This document shows positions 4,008 through 51,617 of a stretch of DNA of 59,739 bases, one piece after another. The notes beneath the pieces were generated by a model, which saw only the letters and a program-made list of their open reading frames with translations, was not told where the DNA came from and did not search any database. Position 1 is the first letter of the stretch; every line of letters starts with the position of its first letter. The DNA is from an uncultured Oscillospiraceae bacterium (GTDB lineage Bacteria; Bacillota; Clostridia; Acetivibrionales; DTU013), in the NCBI GenBank assembly GCA_964587755.1, contig CAZPMC010000009.1, forward strand, positions 259 to 59,997, given 5' to 3'. The position numbers and the translations under genes were made by a program.

Positions 4008-5365
4008 GACTTATACTTAAACGGGCTATTGCTCTTTTAGTGCTTATATCTTTACTTGTTTGCGGTCTTATGTTCTTTTTAACAAAGTATTTTTTCAATG
4101 CGCCTAAATGGGCAAGTCACCCTGCAAACAAGCATTTATATAAAAACGGGCGGATCATTTCATCCGGAAGTATTTTTGACCGTTCAGGCAAAATGCTTTT
4201 TATGATGGATGGGGGCATCGCAAGGTACAATGACAATAAAACGATACGAACTGCCGTAATGCATGCCGTAGGGGATATGGAGGGCTATGTAGCTACTGGT
4301 GCCAGGACCGTTTTTAAGGATAAGCTCATGGGCTGGAATTTTATTAACGGGGCGTATCATTTTGATAAATCAGACTTTGGAAGTGATATAACCCTGACAC
4401 TGGATTCTGATTTGTGTGCTGTGGCTTATAATGCATTAAGCGGCCGGAAGGGGACAGTGGGAGTCTACAATTATAAGAGCGGAGAAATAATATGTATGGT
4501 CAGCTCCCCTTCCTATGATCCGCAAAATCCGCCTAATGTGAAGGATAACCCTGAAAAGTACGAGGGTGTTTATATGAACCGGTTTCTTTCCTCGGCATAT
4601 ACACCGGGCTCTATATTTAAGCTGGTGACGGCTGCTGCGGCAATCGATACTCTTGATGAAGCTGAAAGCAGGGTTTACAGATGTGATGGAAAGAAGGTTA
4701 TAGACGGTAAAGCTGTAACATGCCTGTCAGCTCATGGAGATGTTACACTGGAGAAGGCACTTGCGGAGTCCTGCAATATAGCATTTGCTGAAATATCTCT
4801 TGAGCTTGGTGCTGAAAAGCTGCAGGAATATGCAAATTTGACTGGCTTTAATTCAAGCCTGAAGGTTGACGGGATAAATACCTCAAAAGGTACAGTGGAC
4901 CTTACGAAAGCCGATGGGGGAGATCTCGCCTGGGCGGGAATAGGGCAATACACAAATACGGCAAACCCTCTCAACTTTATGGTTTATATGGGGGCTATTG
5001 CTAATGACGGCATTGCTGTAAGGCCGCGAATACTTGCCGGTAGCGGGATATTTGCAGAAGCCTCTGCCGTTTCAGGTAAAAATGATAGAATATTGGAAGA
5101 GGATACTGCAAGAGCACTGGGAAGTATGATGAGGAATAACGTCTTAAGCAAATACGGAGAAAAGAATTTTAAAAACCTTGAAATGTGTGCTAAGACAGGT
5201 ACGGCCGAGGTAGGCGAGGGTATCAGGCCTCATGCATGGTTTGCAGGATTCTTGGACAGAGAGGATGCACCTTATGCATTTGTAGTCATTGTAGAAAATG
5301 GCGGCTCAGGCAGCCAGGTGGCGGGCGCAGTTGCCGCAAAGGTCTTGAAGGCAGCAGTAGAATAA
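4004..5365 (+). CDS. Class B penicillin-binding protein (D,D-transpeptidase), cognate partner of the SEDS protein
   Basis: 4-bp overlap with the SEDS gene. N-terminal TM anchor. SxxK (TPGSIFK), SxN (AESCNIAF) and KTG (AKTGTAE) motifs. Confidence 0.9.
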   Translation: MRLILKRAIALLVLISLLVCGLMFFLTKYFFNAPKWASHPANKHLYKNGRIISSGSIFDRSGKMLFMMDGGIARYNDNKTIRTAVMHAVGDMEGYVATGARTVFKDKLMGWNFINGAYHFDKSDFGSDITLTLDSDLCAVAYNALSGRKGTVGVYNYKSGEIICMVSSPSYDPQNPPNVKDNPEKYEGVYMNRFLSSAYTPGSIFKLVTAAAAIDTLDEAESRVYRCDGKKVIDGKAVTCLSAHGDVTLEKALAESCNIAFAEISLELGAEKLQEYANLTGFNSSLKVDGINTSKGTVDLTKADGGDLAWAGIGQYTNTANPLNFMVYMGAIANDGIAVRPRILAGSGIFAEASAVSGKNDRILEEDTARALGSMMRNNVLSKYGEKNFKNLEMCAKTGTAEVGEGIRPHAWFAGFLDREDAPYAFVVIVENGGSGSQVAGAVAAKVLKAAVE

Positions 5366-5425
5366 TGGTGCCAGGCACTGAAGTGGCATCAAGAAGTGGC
5401 ACCCAGAAAAGTGTGGAGGTGTTTG
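5361..5425. repeat. Short copy of the GC-rich repeat family between the PBP and C11 genes
   Basis: GGTGCCAGGCACTGAAG (5367-5383) is the reverse complement of the CTTCAGTGCCTGGCRCC motif at 26539-26555 and 40109-40124. It is followed by GTGTGGAGGTG, resembling the inverted AACCTCCACAAAC motif. Confidence 0.55.
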
Positions 5426-13465: not shown

Positions 13466-14464
13466 ATGAGCGATATTTTACTTGATATTAAAAATGAACG
13501 GCTCTCCTTCTTCACACCTGCGGGTGAAGTTAAGGCATTAAATGATGTGTCTATAAGCATGAATGAGGGGGATGTATTAGGGATAGTCGGTGAGAGCGGA
13601 AGCGGTAAAAGCGTAACTGCATACTCCATAATGGGTCTTACTGCTTACCCGGGGCGATTGATAGGTGGTACGATTGAATTTAACGGTCACAGGATAGATC
13701 AACTGTCAGAGAAGGAAATGCGTGATATTCGCGGTAATGAGGTAAGTATAATTTTCCAGGACCCGATGACAAGTCTAAATCCTGTTTTTACTATAGGGGA
13801 TCAGATAAAAGAGGTTATTTTACTGCATACGGATAAAACGAAGGAAGAGGCTAATCAACGTGTTATTGAGCTTCTGAATCTGGTTGGTATAAATGAACCG
13901 GAAAAACGGATAAAGCAGTATCCTCACCAACTGTCGGGTGGCATGAGGCAAAGAGTAATGATAGCTATTGCCCTGGCTTGTGAACCTAAGCTTTTGATTG
14001 CCGATGAACCTACTACTGCATTAGACGTTACAATTCAGGCTCAGATACTGGAGCTGATGATAGAGCTGAAAGAAAAAATCGGCATGTCTATTATTATGAT
14101 TACCCATGACTTGGGCATAGTTGCGAGCATGTGCCAGAAAATTGCGGTAATGTATGCAGGTAAAATCGTAGAGTATGGAACGGTTGATGAAATATTCTAC
14201 AATCCTAAGCATGAATATACAAAAGGGTTGCTCAGGAGCATCCCGAAGCTGAACGAGAAAGAGCATAAAAGGCTGGTGCCGATTGAGGGTACCCCTGTGG
14301 ATATGCTCAATCCGCCTGCAGGATGTCCCTTTGCTCCACGTTGTGACAGCTGCATGAAGATTTGCCTGTCAAGAATGCCAGAGTATACTGTTATTTCTGA
14401 TACTCACTACAGTGCTTGCTGGCTTTTGCAAAAGGAAGCTTTTGAGCAGGGGGGGAAATTATAA
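13466..14464 (+). CDS. oppD: Opp/Dpp-type ABC transporter ATP-binding protein
   Basis: Walker A GESGSGKS, signature LSGGMRQR, Walker B LLIADEPT, and the C-terminal oligopeptide-type Cys motif. Confidence 0.93.
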
Positions 14465-15432
14465 TGAGTAAGCTTGTTGAAGTTCAGAATCTGAAGCAAT
14501 ATTTTAAAGTCGGGGGCAGCTTTATAAAGCCCCAGTATGTTAAAGCGGTAGATGATGTGAGCTTTCATATAGATAAGGGCGAGACTTTGGGCCTCGTCGG
14601 AGAGAGCGGTTGCGGAAAGACGACAACAGGACGGACCATATTAAGATTGTACGAGCCCACAAGCGGCAGGATTATTTATGATGGCGAGGATATAACAAAG
14701 GTTGATATGATGCCTTACCGCCGCAAAATGCAGATTGTTTTCCAAGACCCCTATGCAAGTCTTGACCCTCGAATGACCGTCGGAGACATTGTTGGCGAAG
14801 CCATTGATATTCATAAGCTGGCATCAAGCAAGAGTGAGCGCAAGGATAAAATAATTTCAATGCTTGAGCGGGTCGGCTTGAACAGTGAGCATGCAAACCG
14901 TTATCCTCACGAGTTTTCCGGCGGACAACGCCAGCGTATTGGCATTGCCCGGGCTTTGGCTGTTGATCCTGAATTTATTGTGTGTGATGAGCCGATTTCT
15001 GCTTTGGATGTTTCAATTCAGGCTCAGGTGGTAAATATGTTTGAAGATTTACAAGAGGAGCTTGGACTGGCATATTTGTTTATTGCGCATGATCTCAGTG
15101 TTGTAAAGCATATCAGCAACCGTATAGGTGTTATGTACCTTGGGAAGCTGGTTGAGCTGGCGGACAGCTATGAGCTGACATTCCATAGCGTACATCCATA
15201 CACCAAGTCTTTGATTTCGGCTATTCCGATTGCAGACCCCATCGCAAGCCGCAGTCAAAAGAGAATTATTCTTGAAGGTGATGTACCAAGCCCGCTAAAT
15301 CCGCCATCAGGGTGCAGGTTCCGCACAAGGTGCCCATATGCTACTGAGATTTGTGCCCAGCAGGAGCCTGAATTTAAGGAAGTTTCAAAAGGGCATTTTG
15401 CTGCTTGTCATCATCTTGACAAGGTTAATTAA
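14464..15432 (+). CDS. oppF: Opp/Dpp-type ABC transporter ATP-binding protein
   Basis: Walker [10 protein letters not shown], signature FSGGQRQR, Walker [10 protein letters not shown]. Start overlaps the oppD stop. Confidence 0.93.
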
Positions 15433-17325: not shown

Positions 17326-17449
17326 CAGGGAGCTGCTGAGAGCAGTCAGATTCAGGTGACGATTTGCTATTTCAACCGATTTAAATGGCGTTGGCGGTCT
17401 GTGTTATGATATAATTTTCAAAAAAGTGAAAGGATGTATATGAATAATT

Positions 17450-25256: not shown

Positions 25257-26222
25257 GTGAAGCATCGTTTTATTTCGAAAATTTTAATATTCGCAATTGT
25301 AGCAATTATGCTCAATATATTTTGCATCCAGGGTTTTGCTGCACAGACCGGTGCAACGATTTCAAACGTTAGCATAAGTCATGATTCACAAAACAGCAAA
25401 CTGATAATTACCGGCGCCATAAGCTCCGGAAGCGGATGCGAGGTCACTGTTACCGTGACCACACCAACAGGCGTGATAGACTTTATTGACCAGGTAACAA
25501 GCGGGTCTGGTGGAAGTTTCACATTTGAGTATGTATATGATGAGCTTCTTGACGGACAGTATTTAATCAGTATAGGCGGCATAGGAGTTGACTTGCCTTA
25601 TTCAGGCACCTGGCAGAAGGATGGAGGACAGACAGGTCAAAACTTGATGGTAATAACCGCACCTGACAGAGTATACTCACATGATACATTTGAAGCAGGT
25701 ATCGGCATATCGGACATAAGTCCAAATATTTACGCTATGATTATCACATTAAACTACAATGCGCAACATCTTGAATATATTAAGACTGAAAAAGTCGATG
25801 AAAGCGATGAGAATATTATGGTCTTGAGTACATTGAATACTCCGGGGTTATTGAAAATAGTAAAAACGGATACGACCAGCTTCTCTGATATTGAGCAGGC
25901 GGCTAAAGTCACCTTTAGGGTAAGAAGTGGAATAAGCAACGTGACAAGCAATATACAAATTACAAGTGCAGAGCTCGGTGTTGCTCCGGGAGGAGAAGTA
26001 ATCTTTGCTGAGTTGGCCGATAAAACCATTTCAGTATTAATGCCGGGAGATGTAAGCGGAGATGGCGATGTAGACGTGGGTGACCTTGCTATTGTCGCAT
26101 ACTATTATGGAAAGACATCGGAGGATGAGGATTGGCATTTGGCTCGAGTTGCAGACTTCAATGGTGACAATAGGGTAGACTTTATTGATCTCGCATTTGT
26201 AGCACAAAAAATGTTGGATTAA
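25257..26222 (+). CDS. Adaptor scaffoldin-like protein: Ig-like module + cohesin-like module + dockerin
   Basis: Signal peptide. Cohesin-like module at aa about 128-260 (YAMIITLNYNAQHLEYIKTEK). Dockerin with two Ca-binding loops, DVSGDGDVDVGDL and DFNGDNRVDFIDL (about 26043-26216). GTG start follows AGGAGG. Confidence 0.8.
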   Translation: MKHRFISKILIFAIVAIMLNIFCIQGFAAQTGATISNVSISHDSQNSKLIITGAISSGSGCEVTVTVTTPTGVIDFIDQVTSGSGGSFTFEYVYDELLDGQYLISIGGIGVDLPYSGTWQKDGGQTGQNLMVITAPDRVYSHDTFEAGIGISDISPNIYAMIITLNYNAQHLEYIKTEKVDESDENIMVLSTLNTPGLLKIVKTDTTSFSDIEQAAKVTFRVRSGISNVTSNIQITSAELGVAPGGEVIFAELADKTISVLMPGDVSGDGDVDVGDLAIVAYYYGKTSEDEDWHLARVADFNGDNRVDFIDLAFVAQKMLD

Positions 26223-26236
26223 TTAGACTCATTTAT

Positions 26237-26289
26237 ATTGGTTTGTTTTCCCAGTGGATGACTTTGGTTGTCCACTGGGATTTATTTTG
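26237..26289 (+). terminator. Terminator hairpin, member of the repeated hairpin family (copy H3)
   Basis: CCCAGTGGA (26250-26258) / TCCACTGGG (26271-26279), loop TGACTTTGGTTG, then ATTTATTTTG. The 5' flank ATTGGTTT is shared with copy H4. Confidence 0.7.
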
Positions 26290-26294
26290 GCATA

Positions 26295-26580
26295 ACGGCA
26301 GGCTGTAAGAAATAAGTCTCGCTGAAATGCGGCGGCTGGTCGCATACTTCGTATGCTGCTCGCCCATGCAACCTGGCTGACGATTCGGCGTCCGTGCCTC
26401 AATGCCAGCGGGTTTGCCGTCCATGGCAAACTTTAGCGTTCCTGATACCACATTCCAACTTCACCACATTTCACAGCCTGTAAAGACTTCATTACATGGT
26501 GCCTGAAGCTAACCTCCACAAACGGCACTGCCGGTCAGCTTCAGTGCCTGGCGCCAAATAATGGCACTAAATAATGCACC
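26295..26580. repeat. GC-rich composite non-coding repeat element (copy B)
   Basis: Contains CAGGCTGTAAGAAAT (26299-26313), inverted relative to ATTTCACAGCCTGTA (26468-26482). Also GCTGAAATGCGGCGG (26321-26335), AACCTCCACAAACGGCACTGCCGGTC (26511-26536) and CTTCAGTGCCTGGCGCC (26539-26555). All of these recur at 39950-40126. Confidence 0.7.
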
Positions 26581-26590
26581 AAATAAATGT

Positions 26591-26619
26591 TTAAGCTAAA
26601 TGCCCTTTCTGTCCGATAT
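26591..26619 (+). promoter_or_regulatory. Possible sigma-D (sigma-28) type promoter for motAB
   Basis: CCGATAT at 26613-26619 matches the sigma-D -10 core, about 90 nt upstream of motA. Candidate -35 elements (TTAAG 26591-26595, CTAAA 26596-26600) are at non-ideal spacing. Confidence 0.3.
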
Positions 26620-26711
26620 AGTCATAGAGGTATTTATTGAAATAAAATGTACATTATGCTAGTATTATGTCAGACAAATGGATAAAGATGCTGATTTTAG
26701 GGGGAAAAGGC

Positions 26712-38248: not shown

Positions 38249-39943
38249 GTGGACAGACAATCTAATGCAAAAGGGTTTACAATATTAAGTGCTGCCAGCA
38301 TCATCAATAAGCTGCTGGGTGTATTGTATGTACCCATTTTGACGCTTATACTAGGAAATGTGGGAAATGGTATTTATAATGCAGGCTATACTATTTATCA
38401 GCTTGTGTTTATGATAACAAATGCAGGTATACCTGTAGCAATCTCAAAGCTTATTTCAGAGCAGGTGGCAGCCGGCAAATATGATGTTTCATACCGGACA
38501 CTAAAAATATCAGGTATACTGCTTGTTTCAATTGGCGCGGTTACAAGCATTTTAACAGGTGTTTTTGCAAAGCCGCTGTCCCAATTAATCGGATGGCCGG
38601 AGTCTTTTATGACAATATTGGCATTGTCACCTACGATGCTATTTACTGCTATTTCCTGCACCTTCAGAGGATATTTTCAGGGGCGTTCAAATATGGTACC
38701 CACAGGAATTTCTCAAATTATAGAACAGGCCTTAAACACCACTTTAACAATACTTTTTGCATGGCTTATGTACCGTTACGGATATAACTATGCAATTGCT
38801 CAAGGGATAACAGGTGAAGCCGAAATAAACCTGGAGGCAGTGAAATTTGCAGCAGCAGGTGGAACGGTAGGTACCTCCTTAGGCGCTCTGGGAAGCGCAT
38901 TGTACTTATATAGGCGGTATATAAAAAGCAAAGCCGATATTCTAAAGGAAATAGCTCAATCTATAGTAGATGAGGAATTTGTATACTCTGCAAAAAAGAT
39001 ACTAAAAAAGATATTCCAATATTCAATACCTATTACATTAGGCTCTGTAGCTATTTACACAGCTAACCTTATCGACCTGAGCTTCACAAAAACAAGGCTG
39101 ATAAAAAGTGGCTTTACTACCACCGAGGCAAGCGCTCTTTATGGAATATTTTCAACACAGTATCTAAAGGTGCTTTTCATACCTGTTACAATTGCAACAG
39201 CGCTGGCCACAACTATACTCCCGTCAATTTCTGCCGCTTCGGCAGTTGGCAACATCGGACTTTTAAGAAGAAGAATATCCAAAAGTATTAAAACAATTCT
39301 TATGATATCCATACCTGCGGCTGCAGGAATGGCTTTAATGGCACAGCCGATAATAAATATCCTGTTTCCTACTGCCCCCGACGGGGCGGACCTTTTGATG
39401 ATGGGCTCGTGGACACTGATTCTCATATCTATGGTATCTATTCAGACGGCTATCCTGCAGGGAATCGGAAAGACATATATCCCTACCATACATCTGGTGA
39501 CGGGGCTTGTTGTAAAGCTTATTGTTAATTATAATTTAATTGCAATTAGGGCTATTAATATAAAAGGAGCATTGATAGGCAGTGCAGCCTGTTACATATT
39601 AGCATTTTATTTAAATTACAGATCAATCAAAAAGCACACAGGTGTCAGACTGGATGTCAAGAAGCTTTTTAACAGGCCTCTTAGCGTATCAATTATCATG
39701 GGGATTTTGGTTAAGTTAATCTATGAGGGATTTACATTTATGACAGACTGGCTTATTAAATCGGTATTCATCCAGAGTGTAATCTGCGGAGGATTGGCGA
39801 TTTTAGCCGGCTGCTTCATCTACTATCTTCTTATGATTGTCGCAAGGGGAATTACAGCGGATGATATTAAGAGCCTGCCAATGGGGAATAAAATATTGGC
39901 GGCAACTAAAAAGATAAGCTTTGTAGAGAAGTATCTGGATTAA
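38249..39943 (+). CDS. MurJ/SpoVB-type (MOP superfamily) polysaccharide/lipid II flippase
   Basis: 564 aa, about 14 TM helices. The N-terminus GFTILSAASIINKLLGVLYVPIL is typical of the SpoVB/polysaccharide biosynthesis protein family. Confidence 0.82.
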   Translation: MDRQSNAKGFTILSAASIINKLLGVLYVPILTLILGNVGNGIYNAGYTIYQLVFMITNAGIPVAISKLISEQVAAGKYDVSYRTLKISGILLVSIGAVTSILTGVFAKPLSQLIGWPESFMTILALSPTMLFTAISCTFRGYFQGRSNMVPTGISQIIEQALNTTLTILFAWLMYRYGYNYAIAQGITGEAEINLEAVKFAAAGGTVGTSLGALGSALYLYRRYIKSKADILKEIAQSIVDEEFVYSAKKILKKIFQYSIPITLGSVAIYTANLIDLSFTKTRLIKSGFTTTEASALYGIFSTQYLKVLFIPVTIATALATTILPSISAASAVGNIGLLRRRISKSIKTILMISIPAAAGMALMAQPIINILFPTAPDGADLLMMGSWTLILISMVSIQTAILQGIGKTYIPTIHLVTGLVVKLIVNYNLIAIRAINIKGALIGSAACYILAFYLNYRSIKKHTGVRLDVKKLFNRPLSVSIIMGILVKLIYEGFTFMTDWLIKSVFIQSVICGGLAILAGCFIYYLLMIVARGITADDIKSLPMGNKILAATKKISFVEKYLD

Positions 39944-39949
39944 CAGGTT

Positions 39950-40126
39950 GTAGCCGTTACTGCGCAGATGTTGGTATTGCAGCCGTGTTGACCCATCATG
40001 CTTCGAAGCAGGAAACAGTAACCTCCATAAACGGCACTGCCGGTCCATGATTGTGAAGCAGCTATCAACCGCCGCATTTCAGCTTCGACATTATTTCACA
40101 GTCTGTAGCTTCAGTGCCTGGCACTG
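39950..40126. repeat. GC-rich composite non-coding repeat element (copy C), overlapping the 3' end of the carboxypeptidase gene
   Basis: AACCTCCATAAACGGCACTGCCGGTC 40020-40045; CCGCCGCATTTCAGC 40069-40083 (inverted relative to copy B); ATTTCACAGTCTGTA 40093-40107; perfect 15-bp palindrome CAGTGCCTGGCACTG 40112-40126. Confidence 0.7.
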
Positions 40127-41448
40127 TAAATGTTTCTTCTCTTAACTCTTCTTGATATTCTTTTAAGAATTGTCCTAAGTATGACCAGCCCGCAGGAGGC
40201 TAATAAAATATAGAGCAGGATGAAGGAGTAGGATGAGTCCTTTGCAGCAGTTTGATCGGCTTGACTGGTTAACTGAGCAGGTAATGCCGGAACAGATTTG
40301 GCTGCAACTATATCCACATATCCTAGAAGTGAATCATTGTAGTAGTACTCTGCCTTACCAAGAATGTCACCCTTTTCTATGGGAGCTTTTATTGAATTGT
40401 CTATTGTAAAATTTGTTTTTACATCCTGAGCACTTGCATCTATTGGAAGCACAGCTTTCATGTCAGAGTTTAGCACCAGCTCAAGAACCGAGTCGTGAGC
40501 TTCGGCATTTTCAACGTATACAGTAGTGATATGCTTGCCCTTTTTGGCAATCTCATTAAAGGAGAAGTTTTCAAATCCGTATCTAAGCAGTTCTTTTGAA
40601 TAGCCGTATATTTTGTTTGGCTGGGTAACATGCATTATCACCGATATAAGCTCCATGCCGTCCTCGCCGGTTGCGGCTGAAACCAGGTTGTTCCCGGCGG
40701 CAGCAGTGTAGCCTGTTTTCACACCTATTACTGTGTACTTATGGTCCGTATCACCTATTTTGTATGGGTATGTGTTATCATACCAAAGCAGTTGGTTGGT
40801 ATTCCTAAGGATTCCCCAATCATCGTGCTTATTTGTTTGTGGCATATCATTGTAATATTCTGTGGAGACGATTTGTCTAAACTTGGGGATTAACATGGCA
40901 TAACGGGCGAAGGCAGCCATATCCCTGGCAGTAGTCAGGTGATCGGCATCTTCCTTTTCCGTATCCTTGCCGCTTGCGTTGACAAAATTGGTATTGAAAG
41001 CACCAAGCTCGAGAGCTTTCTGATTCATCATTTCAATAAATTCTTTTCTTGATGGGGCAACATTTTCCGCAATTATATTTGCAGCCTCATTTGCAGATTT
41101 TATTAAAAGAAGGTTTAACATATTGTCAAGGGTCAGGCCTTCTTCACCTGCCATGATTCCAACGTTCATACCGCCTTTACCTATATCAAAAACAGCGCTT
41201 TGAGAAACACTCATCTCCTGCTTTAGGTCGCCATTTTCAAGGGCTACTATTGCAGTCATTATCTTTGTGGTGCTGGCAGGGCGGAGTCTTTGGTCTGCAT
41301 TTTGCTCTGCAAGAACCTGACCTGTCTTTATATCAATAAGTATATAGGGAATATCGCTGGGGATATTAATGGCTTGGGCCCATGATATGCATGGATAAAG
41401 CAGTATAAATAAAAGCATCAGTAAAAACATTAAACGAATTTTCATCAT
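40111..41448 (-). CDS. D-alanyl-D-alanine carboxypeptidase (peptidase S11, PBP5-like)
   Basis: Signal peptide; SxxK (PASTTKIMT), SxN (IKSANEAAN) and KTG (GVKTGYT) motifs; C-terminal TM anchor. Confidence 0.9.
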   Translation of the reverse strand: MMKIRLMFLLMLLFILLYPCISWAQAINIPSDIPYILIDIKTGQVLAEQNADQRLRPASTTKIMTAIVALENGDLKQEMSVSQSAVFDIGKGGMNVGIMAGEEGLTLDNMLNLLLIKSANEAANIIAENVAPSRKEFIEMMNQKALELGAFNTNFVNASGKDTEKEDADHLTTARDMAAFARYAMLIPKFRQIVSTEYYNDMPQTNKHDDWGILRNTNQLLWYDNTYPYKIGDTDHKYTVIGVKTGYTAAAGNNLVSAATGEDGMELISVIMHVTQPNKIYGYSKELLRYGFENFSFNEIAKKGKHITTVYVENAEAHDSVLELVLNSDMKAVLPIDASAQDVKTNFTIDNSIKAPIEKGDILGKAEYYYNDSLLGYVDIVAAKSVPALPAQLTSQADQTAAKDSSYSFILLYILLASCGLVILRTILKRISRRVKRRNIYSARH

Positions 41449-51593: not shown

Positions 51594-51617
51594 AGTTATG
51601 GGTGCCGTTTTGATTAA

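Follow-up and report, generated by a model that had tools for sequence, protein, structure and literature searches.

The TwoAYGGAY motif (RF01731), defined by Weinberg et al. 2010 (PMC2864571), consists of two adjacent hairpins with AYGGAY terminal loops on a shared basal stem, and is a multi-copy motif of Clostridia whose copies are at times tandem or nested. These properties are found again in a GC-rich block upstream of motA in the stretch of DNA analysed here (the window, 59,739 nt of contig CAZPMC010000009.1 from an uncultured Oscillospiraceae bacterium), and we regard it as secure that positions 26298-26483, read on the minus strand, are a copy of this structured-RNA repeat, belonging to a conserved three-hairpin subtype. 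The block is a known kind of element and not a new class. It differs from the RF01731 model in the conserved third hairpin and sub-threshold Rfam score of the window copy, in the much longer basal stems and outer arms found in this bacterial family, and in the mosaic of other repeat modules that surrounds the copies. An elongated basal stem has been noted for Bacillota copies in a study of extended TwoAYGGAY loci of Pseudomonas (bioRxiv 10.64898/2026.09.22.753630). With those loci the copies described here share a variable copy number, flanking repeats, extra-hairpin variants and a mobile-element-like spread, whereas the 3' pseudoknot or 5' GMTBT repeat array was not seen here, REP arrays and RAYT are absent, and recursive nesting at ACAGNCTGT junctions is found rather than divergent doublets.

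Three other described systems bear comparison with these copies. REP/BIME and REPIN-RAYT elements are likewise short, GC-rich and extragenic, form palindromic mosaics behind genes and are non-randomly oriented, although the TwoAYGGAY unit, at 145-250 nt, is much bigger, has a branched form and conserved loops, and, unlike the REPIN-RAYT system, resides in a genome without a RAYT/Y1 gene. The MITEs and foldback elements (Correia, RUP, ERIC) resemble it in being non-coding and multi-copy, with long terminal inverted repeats, filled and empty sites and nested insertions; unlike them, for the copies studied here neither a target-site duplication nor a parent insertion sequence (IS) sharing their ends was found, and divergent copies keep their pairing by compensatory change, in a strand-specific manner. 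Finally, the CsrB/RsmY/RsmZ small RNAs also present GGA in hairpin loops within a CANGGANG context, and csrA is found in the genome under study, but there are two sites per TwoAYGGAY unit, the copies are many and dispersed and have no defined promoter, and the motif is also kept by relatives with neither csrA nor fliW.

The assembly holding the window (2.27 Mb in 84 contigs, 97% complete) has a GC content of 0.407, compared with 0.51-0.56 for the block (26300-26524, in 150-nt windows) and 0.35-0.41 for its flanks. A preliminary description, made from the letters alone, had singled out this block as clearly richer in GC than its surroundings and as lying between a terminator and motA, and both observations are borne out, the terminator being that of a cohesin-dockerin gene (Table 1). 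The inverted arms that it listed, CAGGCTGTAAGAAAT (26299-26313) and ATTTCACAGCCTGTA (26468-26482), are both present, as are the local hairpins GCATAC-TTC-GTATGC (26342-26356) and TTTGCC-GTCCAT-GGCAAA (26413-26430), and the overlapping open reading frames are indeed negligible (66 and 72 aa, nothing longer). It had hesitated between nested MITE remnants and a structured RNA, and both readings hold, since the core of the block is a member of RF01731 with strong covariation and the block is also built of modular nested repeats; the term composite was equally apt, as one complete unit is accompanied by fragments of other repeat modules over 26484-26585. The block is thus a real element, but the relevant strand is the minus strand, which had been missed. 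A blastn search of the block against the whole assembly located over 20 copies, full or partial, on its other contigs; Rfam gave nothing on the block itself at the gathering threshold, and the family was recognised through shorter sister copies elsewhere in the genome.

The 3' end of the unit is 8 nt from the terminator of the cohesin-dockerin gene and 76 nt past the stop of that gene at 26222. A putative sigma-D-type motA promoter lies about 110 nt downstream of the unit in the plus-strand sense; this sigma-D (sigma-28)-like sequence (CTAAA-N13/14-CCGATAT, 26595-26620) is outside the repeat block. Two other identities were considered and ruled out: a decayed coding sequence, given the short overlapping reading frames and a variation that tracks base pairs and not codons, and a motA riboswitch or leader, given the antisense position of the conserved strand relative to motA and the dispersed-repeat nature of the element. 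The sole matches at the Rfam gathering threshold in the window are CRISPR repeats at 23-182, in the end of a CRISPR array (23-249) of which three repeats match CRISPR-DR3 on the minus strand and the fourth is degenerate.

Table 1. Features of the repeat block, its neighbours and the second mosaic locus (coordinates of the window).
Feature	Position	Strand	Basis or remark
Complete TwoAYGGAY-class unit, three-hairpin subtype, 186 nt	26298-26483	-	covariance model R1, fold
Basal stem, 5' strand UUACAGGCUGUGAAAUGUGGUGAAGUUGGAAUGUGG	26447-26483	-	pairs with 26298-26332
Hairpin 1, hexaloop AUGGAC (reverse complement of 26419-26424), C-G closed	26412-26431	-	stem covaries
Hairpin 2, hexaloop ACGGAC (reverse complement of 26390-26395)	26377-26409	-	family alignment
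Third hairpin module, between hairpin 2 and basal-stem 3' strand	26333-26376	-	absent from short copies
Basal stem, 3' strand CCGCAUUUCAGCGAGACUUAUUUCUUACAGCCUGC	26298-26332	-	alignment, fold
5' outer-arm fragment (layer 2, cf. CACCGTGTAATGGAGCGA), 3' partner missing here	26484-26512	-	arm shared with other copies
Low-copy hairpin module AACCTCCACAAAC-GGCACTG-CCGGTCAGCTT-CAGTGCC	26513-26548		96% identity to 40019-40045
GTGCCWGGCAC palindrome variant, then TGGCAC/TGCACC repeats	26544-26585		separate dispersed short-repeat family
Cohesin-dockerin gene, convergent with the unit on the minus strand	25257-26222		identity by Pfam
Intrinsic terminator of the cohesin-dockerin gene	26237-26290	+	14-pair stem (26249-26280), then T-tail TTTATTTTGG
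motA/motB	start 26667 and onward		identity by Pfam
Second mosaic locus	39943-40127		parts listed below
Second mosaic locus, outer-arm module	39943-39993		
Second mosaic locus, module shared with the window block	40019-40045		
Second mosaic locus, 5' basal-stem half-unit	40046-40107	-	
Second mosaic locus, GTGCCTGGCAC palindrome	within 39943-40127		

Against the RF01731 model the window copy gives only a partial match (22.6 bits, E = 0.58, 26376-26432 on the minus strand, below the 43-bit gathering threshold), because the third hairpin is inserted. A sister copy on contig C31, with 44.5 bits, exceeds the gathering score of 43, another on C39 reaches 39.4 bits, and three further matches in the genome have E < 0.01. 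The window copy is linked to these Rfam-matching sisters by end-to-end alignment and by its score with covariance model R1, built from 11 copies of the same genome, which it matches over the full model length with 127.2 bits (E = 6e-29). The short sister copies, of about 146 nt, form a long stem with two hairpins (one of them folds at -72.1 kcal/mol, z ~ -10), and the window copy aligns with them from end to end save for the 41-44-nt extra hairpin. The orientation of the Rfam model assigns the window copy to the minus strand. In both the minimum free energy (MFE) and the centroid fold of its minus strand, two hairpins stand on a common basal stem, a layout that the family alignment and the pair counts also support, and both terminal loops have the AYGGAY form. 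The basal stem contains several G.U pairs that are possible on the minus strand only, the stem of hairpin 1 covaries between copies (GGCUUUGCC, CCUGCGGC, ACUUCGGC and CCGGCAGC) with swaps visible by eye, and a conserved UGAGGC/GCCGAAU internal motif with tandem G.A lies below the hexaloop of hairpin 2. The third hairpin is itself conserved in the copies on C58 and C77 of the same genome and in the relatives G001, G008 and G015; its tip covaries (CAUAC/GUAUG versus CAAGC/GCUUG) and its flanks are conserved (GCWUGGGCGAGCAG ... CGACCAGCCG).

For the minus strand of the window copy the folding energy is -76.2 kcal/mol (z = -4.9; none of 200 shuffles does as well), compared with -62.1 kcal/mol (z = -2.5) for the plus strand, which is 14 kcal/mol worse. 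Across an alignment of 69 distinct copies, 85.6% of cells were paired versus 68.6% in shuffles, 44 of the 49 pairs showed compensatory change on both sides, and the covariation score was 0.419, as opposed to 0.148 in shuffles and at most 0.08 in slid-partner controls; these counts are not independent events, since the copies are related and the alignment was made to fit the model, and compensatory change could be imitated by correction between the arms of DNA palindromes. In regards to the strand, G.U exceeds A.C among the AYGGAY-strand pairs that are at least 70% Watson-Crick (104 vs 46; 20 vs 6 when columns favouring one or the other are counted, p = 0.009), and the folded strand is therefore the minus strand of the window. 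The AYGGAY strand is also the more stable one in 47 of 67 copies, with a mean difference of -3.4 kcal/mol, and the outer arms, which lie outside the model, lean in the same direction (51 vs 35, not significant). Since a C-to-T mutation bias on the G-rich strand would give the opposite asymmetry, the G.U bias looks selected. Copies within the genome are old and divergent (62% mean column identity) yet still paired, and the stems vary freely, unlike the hexaloop sequence and the A-rich junction, which are conserved. The conserved product would be a folded single strand, most likely RNA.

The mosaic extends beyond the unit. The layer-2 arm listed in Table 1 also flanks copies on C31, C39, C11, C50, C13, C2, C16 and C1. 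The recurrence of parts of the block at 39950-40126, reported in the preliminary description, is real and consists of a direct match (26510-26536 with 40019-40045, 96%) and an inverted one (26321-26343 with 40061-40083, 87%), and the profile search places a 5' basal-stem half at 40071-40107. In the paralogue of the hairpin module at 40032-40119, a 62-nt half-unit is inserted between GGTC and AGCT, and the corresponding 26524-26548 is without insert, so that the window copy of this module is the 'empty' form. The short form claimed for 5361-5425 does exist as a 14-18-nt match, but it belongs to the separate GTGCCWGGCAC/TGGCAC-type short-repeat family, whereas the weaker echoes after hairpins H2 (17326-17410) and H4 (51603-51613) dissolve, as blastn found no similarity there beyond the terminator hairpin itself. 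The 11-nt palindrome GTGCCWGGCAC is present at about 18 loci of the genome, including 5368-5378 and 40114-40124 of the window. It is often followed by TGAAG and by two or three spaced TGGCAC/TGGCAT repeats, and it usually lies just past stop codons or beside GGGGACGG...CCGTCCCC terminator hairpins.

On C39, C31, C11 and C50 the unit is enclosed within three further inverted-repeat layers, and every layer junction is ACAG(N)CTGT. In the relatives G018 and G008, outer arms that covary and are about 45 nt long lengthen the basal stem, and some units in that comparison replace the second hairpin of another unit. At the empty sites on C13 and at C2:52244, the layer-2 arms have TTACAGGCTGT alone between them, while at the filled sites on C39 and C31 a unit of 146-147 nt lies between the same arms; filled and empty paralogous sites differ by exactly one unit, at ACAGNCTGT palindromes. 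The unit ends with ACAGRCTGT and ACAGYCTGT, in which the central base of the 5' end (G/A) pairs with that of the 3' end (C/T), and these ends are therefore inverted repeats and not a target-site duplication. The apparent 11-nt direct repeat TTACAGSCTGT was rejected as a duplication for being the inverted-repeat end of the stem, and no target-site duplication was found at the copies. Given its modular and nested construction, its filled and empty sites and its truncated pieces, the family behaves like a small mobile repeat, and the nesting of modules, with ACAGNCTGT palindromes as the exact point of difference between filled and empty versions, may be a new point.

The R1 search found 16 matches in the genome, and an nhmmer profile search 24. 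Several contigs of the assembly (C58, C74, C77, C67 and C32) end inside repeats of this family, and the k-mer depth of the element in metagenome contigs is 5-14x that of its flanks, so that the true copy number is probably above the 16 assembled matches. Among genomes of the same family, R1 gave 2-19 matches in 20 of 24 (the range across the family being 0-19), while of 16 genomes belonging to other families of the order, only 2 had matches. One copy lies about 2 kb from a c-di-AMP riboswitch of the ydaO/yuaA type (68.5 bits; L009:5429-5599, that is C16 at ~14430-14600), a proximity that is probably coincidental.

An association with a mobile element comes from the complete genome of a relative, G001, where 8 of the 13 matches are near-identical. 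Each of these eight is a complete unit in the 3' non-coding part of an ISL3 insertion sequence, with about 50-60 nt separating it from the stop of the transposase gene and about 190 nt from the end of the IS. The element (L034-L037, L039, L041, L042 and L040:2918-4480) was recognised by Pfam DDE_Tnp_ISL3 (E = 2e-74), and its transposase gene and unit are on the lagging-sense strand in all seven assignable IS copies. An ISL3 element with an internal TwoAYGGAY copy, seen in this one relative, may also be a new point. Behind an orthologous ABC-transporter gene of two genera (L020:1400-1700 in G020 and L024:1400-1700 in G017, 82% identical), units of different subtypes are found in opposite orientations, which suggests independent landings at one spot, or an inversion. 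An all-against-all blastp of 507 flanking ORFs revealed no recurrent protein neighbour, its sole matches being the ISL3 transposase of G001 and one syntenic ABC transporter. No parent autonomous element with the same ends was found, the ISL3 of G001 carrying the unit internally and not as its ends, and no match to a Y1/RAYT gene (PF01797) was obtained in the 97%-complete genome holding the window, so that a RAYT/IS200 association was ruled out. The contigs of four independent bioreactor or digester metagenomes yielded no empty allele of the window locus, and they keep the same junctions.

The copies are strongly oriented. When copies are read as in Rfam, 50 of 66 have a convergent gene on their 3' side (median distance about 100 nt), an arrangement that the window fits; both neighbours are antisense in 32 cases and sense in 10. 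As judged from GC skew on a large scale, the C-rich strand is the one with the AYGGAY sense for 38 of 44 assignable copies (p ~1e-6 against 0.5), with 15/15 in the genome studied here, 11/12 in G001 (7/7 for the ISL3-borne units) and 12/17 in G018. However, 81% of the long ORFs of the genome share the orientation of the skew and the few loci that could discriminate are divided three against three; a polarity relative to replication is therefore not separable from one that is antisense to genes. This strong polarity, with copies usually behind a convergent gene, may again be a new point. As for expression, a single 266-nt contig of an ambiguous 'metagenomic RNA-Seq' run (X23), unstranded, covers 26114-26379, and the same run gave nothing at the C31 copy; a search for RNA runs of G001 returned none. 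The promoter scan of the window copy produced no convincing promoter or terminator on the minus strand, and one weak 9/12 match to a minus-strand promoter 165 nt upstream.

In 97 of 137 loop instances the hexaloop is ANGGAN with a closing C..G pair, the commonest loops across the family being ATGGAC, ACGGAT, ATGGAT and ACGGAC, and the median loop-to-loop spacing is 29 nt. The GGA thus lies in hairpin loops with the context of a CsrA site (C-ANGGAN-G), as it does in the sequestering small RNAs. The consensus for CsrA/RsmE, reportedly described by Schubert and colleagues in 2007, is (A/U)CANGGANG(U/A), and a site spacing of about 29 nt is within the reach of one CsrA dimer reportedly established by Mercante and colleagues in 2009. 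In this genome csrA adjoins fliW at C2:78157-78709. Both csrA and fliW are missing from 5 of the 21 TwoAYGGAY-positive genomes (G003, G011, G012, G019 and G022, which are 87-99% complete), and these five keep high-scoring copies with ANGGAN loops; csrA does not co-occur consistently with the element across genomes.

Our preferred explanation, to which we assign a probability of roughly 60%, is that the block holds a three-hairpin TwoAYGGAY copy of a mobile-like repeat, the folded AYGGAY-sense strand of which is selected. The element would spread or rearrange like a small non-autonomous mobile repeat, with palindromic junctions and gene ends as its likely targets, and the folded strand, probably as RNA, would be under selection, its two GGA hexaloops possibly offering two sites to be clamped by a dimeric protein that binds nucleic acid. 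That protein could be CsrA, as PMC4333381 proposes for TwoAYGGAY and as the 2026 preprint (bioRxiv 10.64898/2026.09.22.753630) repeats, in which case transcribed copies would act as a Clostridial equivalent of CsrB/RsmZ, each holding one CsrA dimer with its two hexaloops. By analogy, the loops of fitting consensus and dimer-bridgeable spacing, together with the csrA and fliW genes of the organism, speak for such a titrating small RNA, and the position next to motAB would fit a tuning of flagellar and other CsrA targets. We nevertheless consider this role unlikely, given that the relatives without csrA and fliW retain the copies and their ANGGAN loops, that neither promoter nor expression support was found, that most copies face against the neighbouring genes, and that the window element is antisense to motA and not in its leader. 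CsrA may be a partner in this genome, but since the element is kept without csrA/fliW in five relatives, CsrA is not the general reason for its conservation and cannot be the universal partner; this presence in csrA- and fliW-less relatives, which weakens the published sponge idea, may be a new point as well. Far less probable still is a REP-like 3'-UTR element on the plus strand, co-transcribed with the upstream gene, its long hairpin protecting the mRNA from 3' exonucleases or backing up termination. Genes do point into the Rfam-3' side of most copies and the RNA-labelled contig spans the 3' end of the gene, the terminator and the start of the element, but a strong terminator lies between gene and element, the window copy folds less stably on the plus strand, the G.U and stability biases favour the other strand, and a plain stabilising hairpin needs no conserved hexaloops.

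The copies could also be purely selfish or structural DNA, of the foldback type or a MITE-like palindrome, with no role as RNA, the pairing being kept by template switching or arm-to-arm correction and the orientation bias resulting from replication-linked insertion or selective loss. The nested mosaic architecture, the truncated pieces and the filled and empty sites at ACAGNCTGT palindromes agree with this, as do the widely varying copy number among relatives and the shared polarity of 38 of 44 copies, including all 15 of this genome and the seven recent ISL3-borne ones. It is nonetheless rather improbable in our view, because the G.U excess would be on the strand opposite to the leading-strand C-to-T bias, the stems vary around conserved hexaloops and a conserved A-rich junction, old divergent copies stay paired, the genome has no Y1 transposase, and the polarity is inseparable from an antisense position relative to genes. 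A final proposal, which we hold to be about equally improbable, is that TwoAYGGAY is a distinct class of non-autonomous mobile element, inserted with a fixed polarity as a folded strand and mobilised in trans. Insertion, by a folded single strand or with one as an intermediate, would be into the apical ACAGNCTGT palindromes of other hairpins and behind gene ends, which would build the recursive nested hairpins, and their polarity would be fixed relative to replication or transcription; a candidate host enzyme would act on them in trans, with the GGA hexaloops as its handle and not as a CsrA decoy.

In an annotation of this window, the appropriate label for the block is a minus-strand repeat of the TwoAYGGAY class, and not a motA leader or riboswitch. 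TwoAYGGAY is among the most widespread bacterial structured-RNA motifs that are still without a known function, and the intact GGA loops in lineages without csrA and fliW argue against CsrA titration as its general role. The exact palindrome difference between filled and empty sites and the recursive nesting point to a site-specific insertion or excision process.
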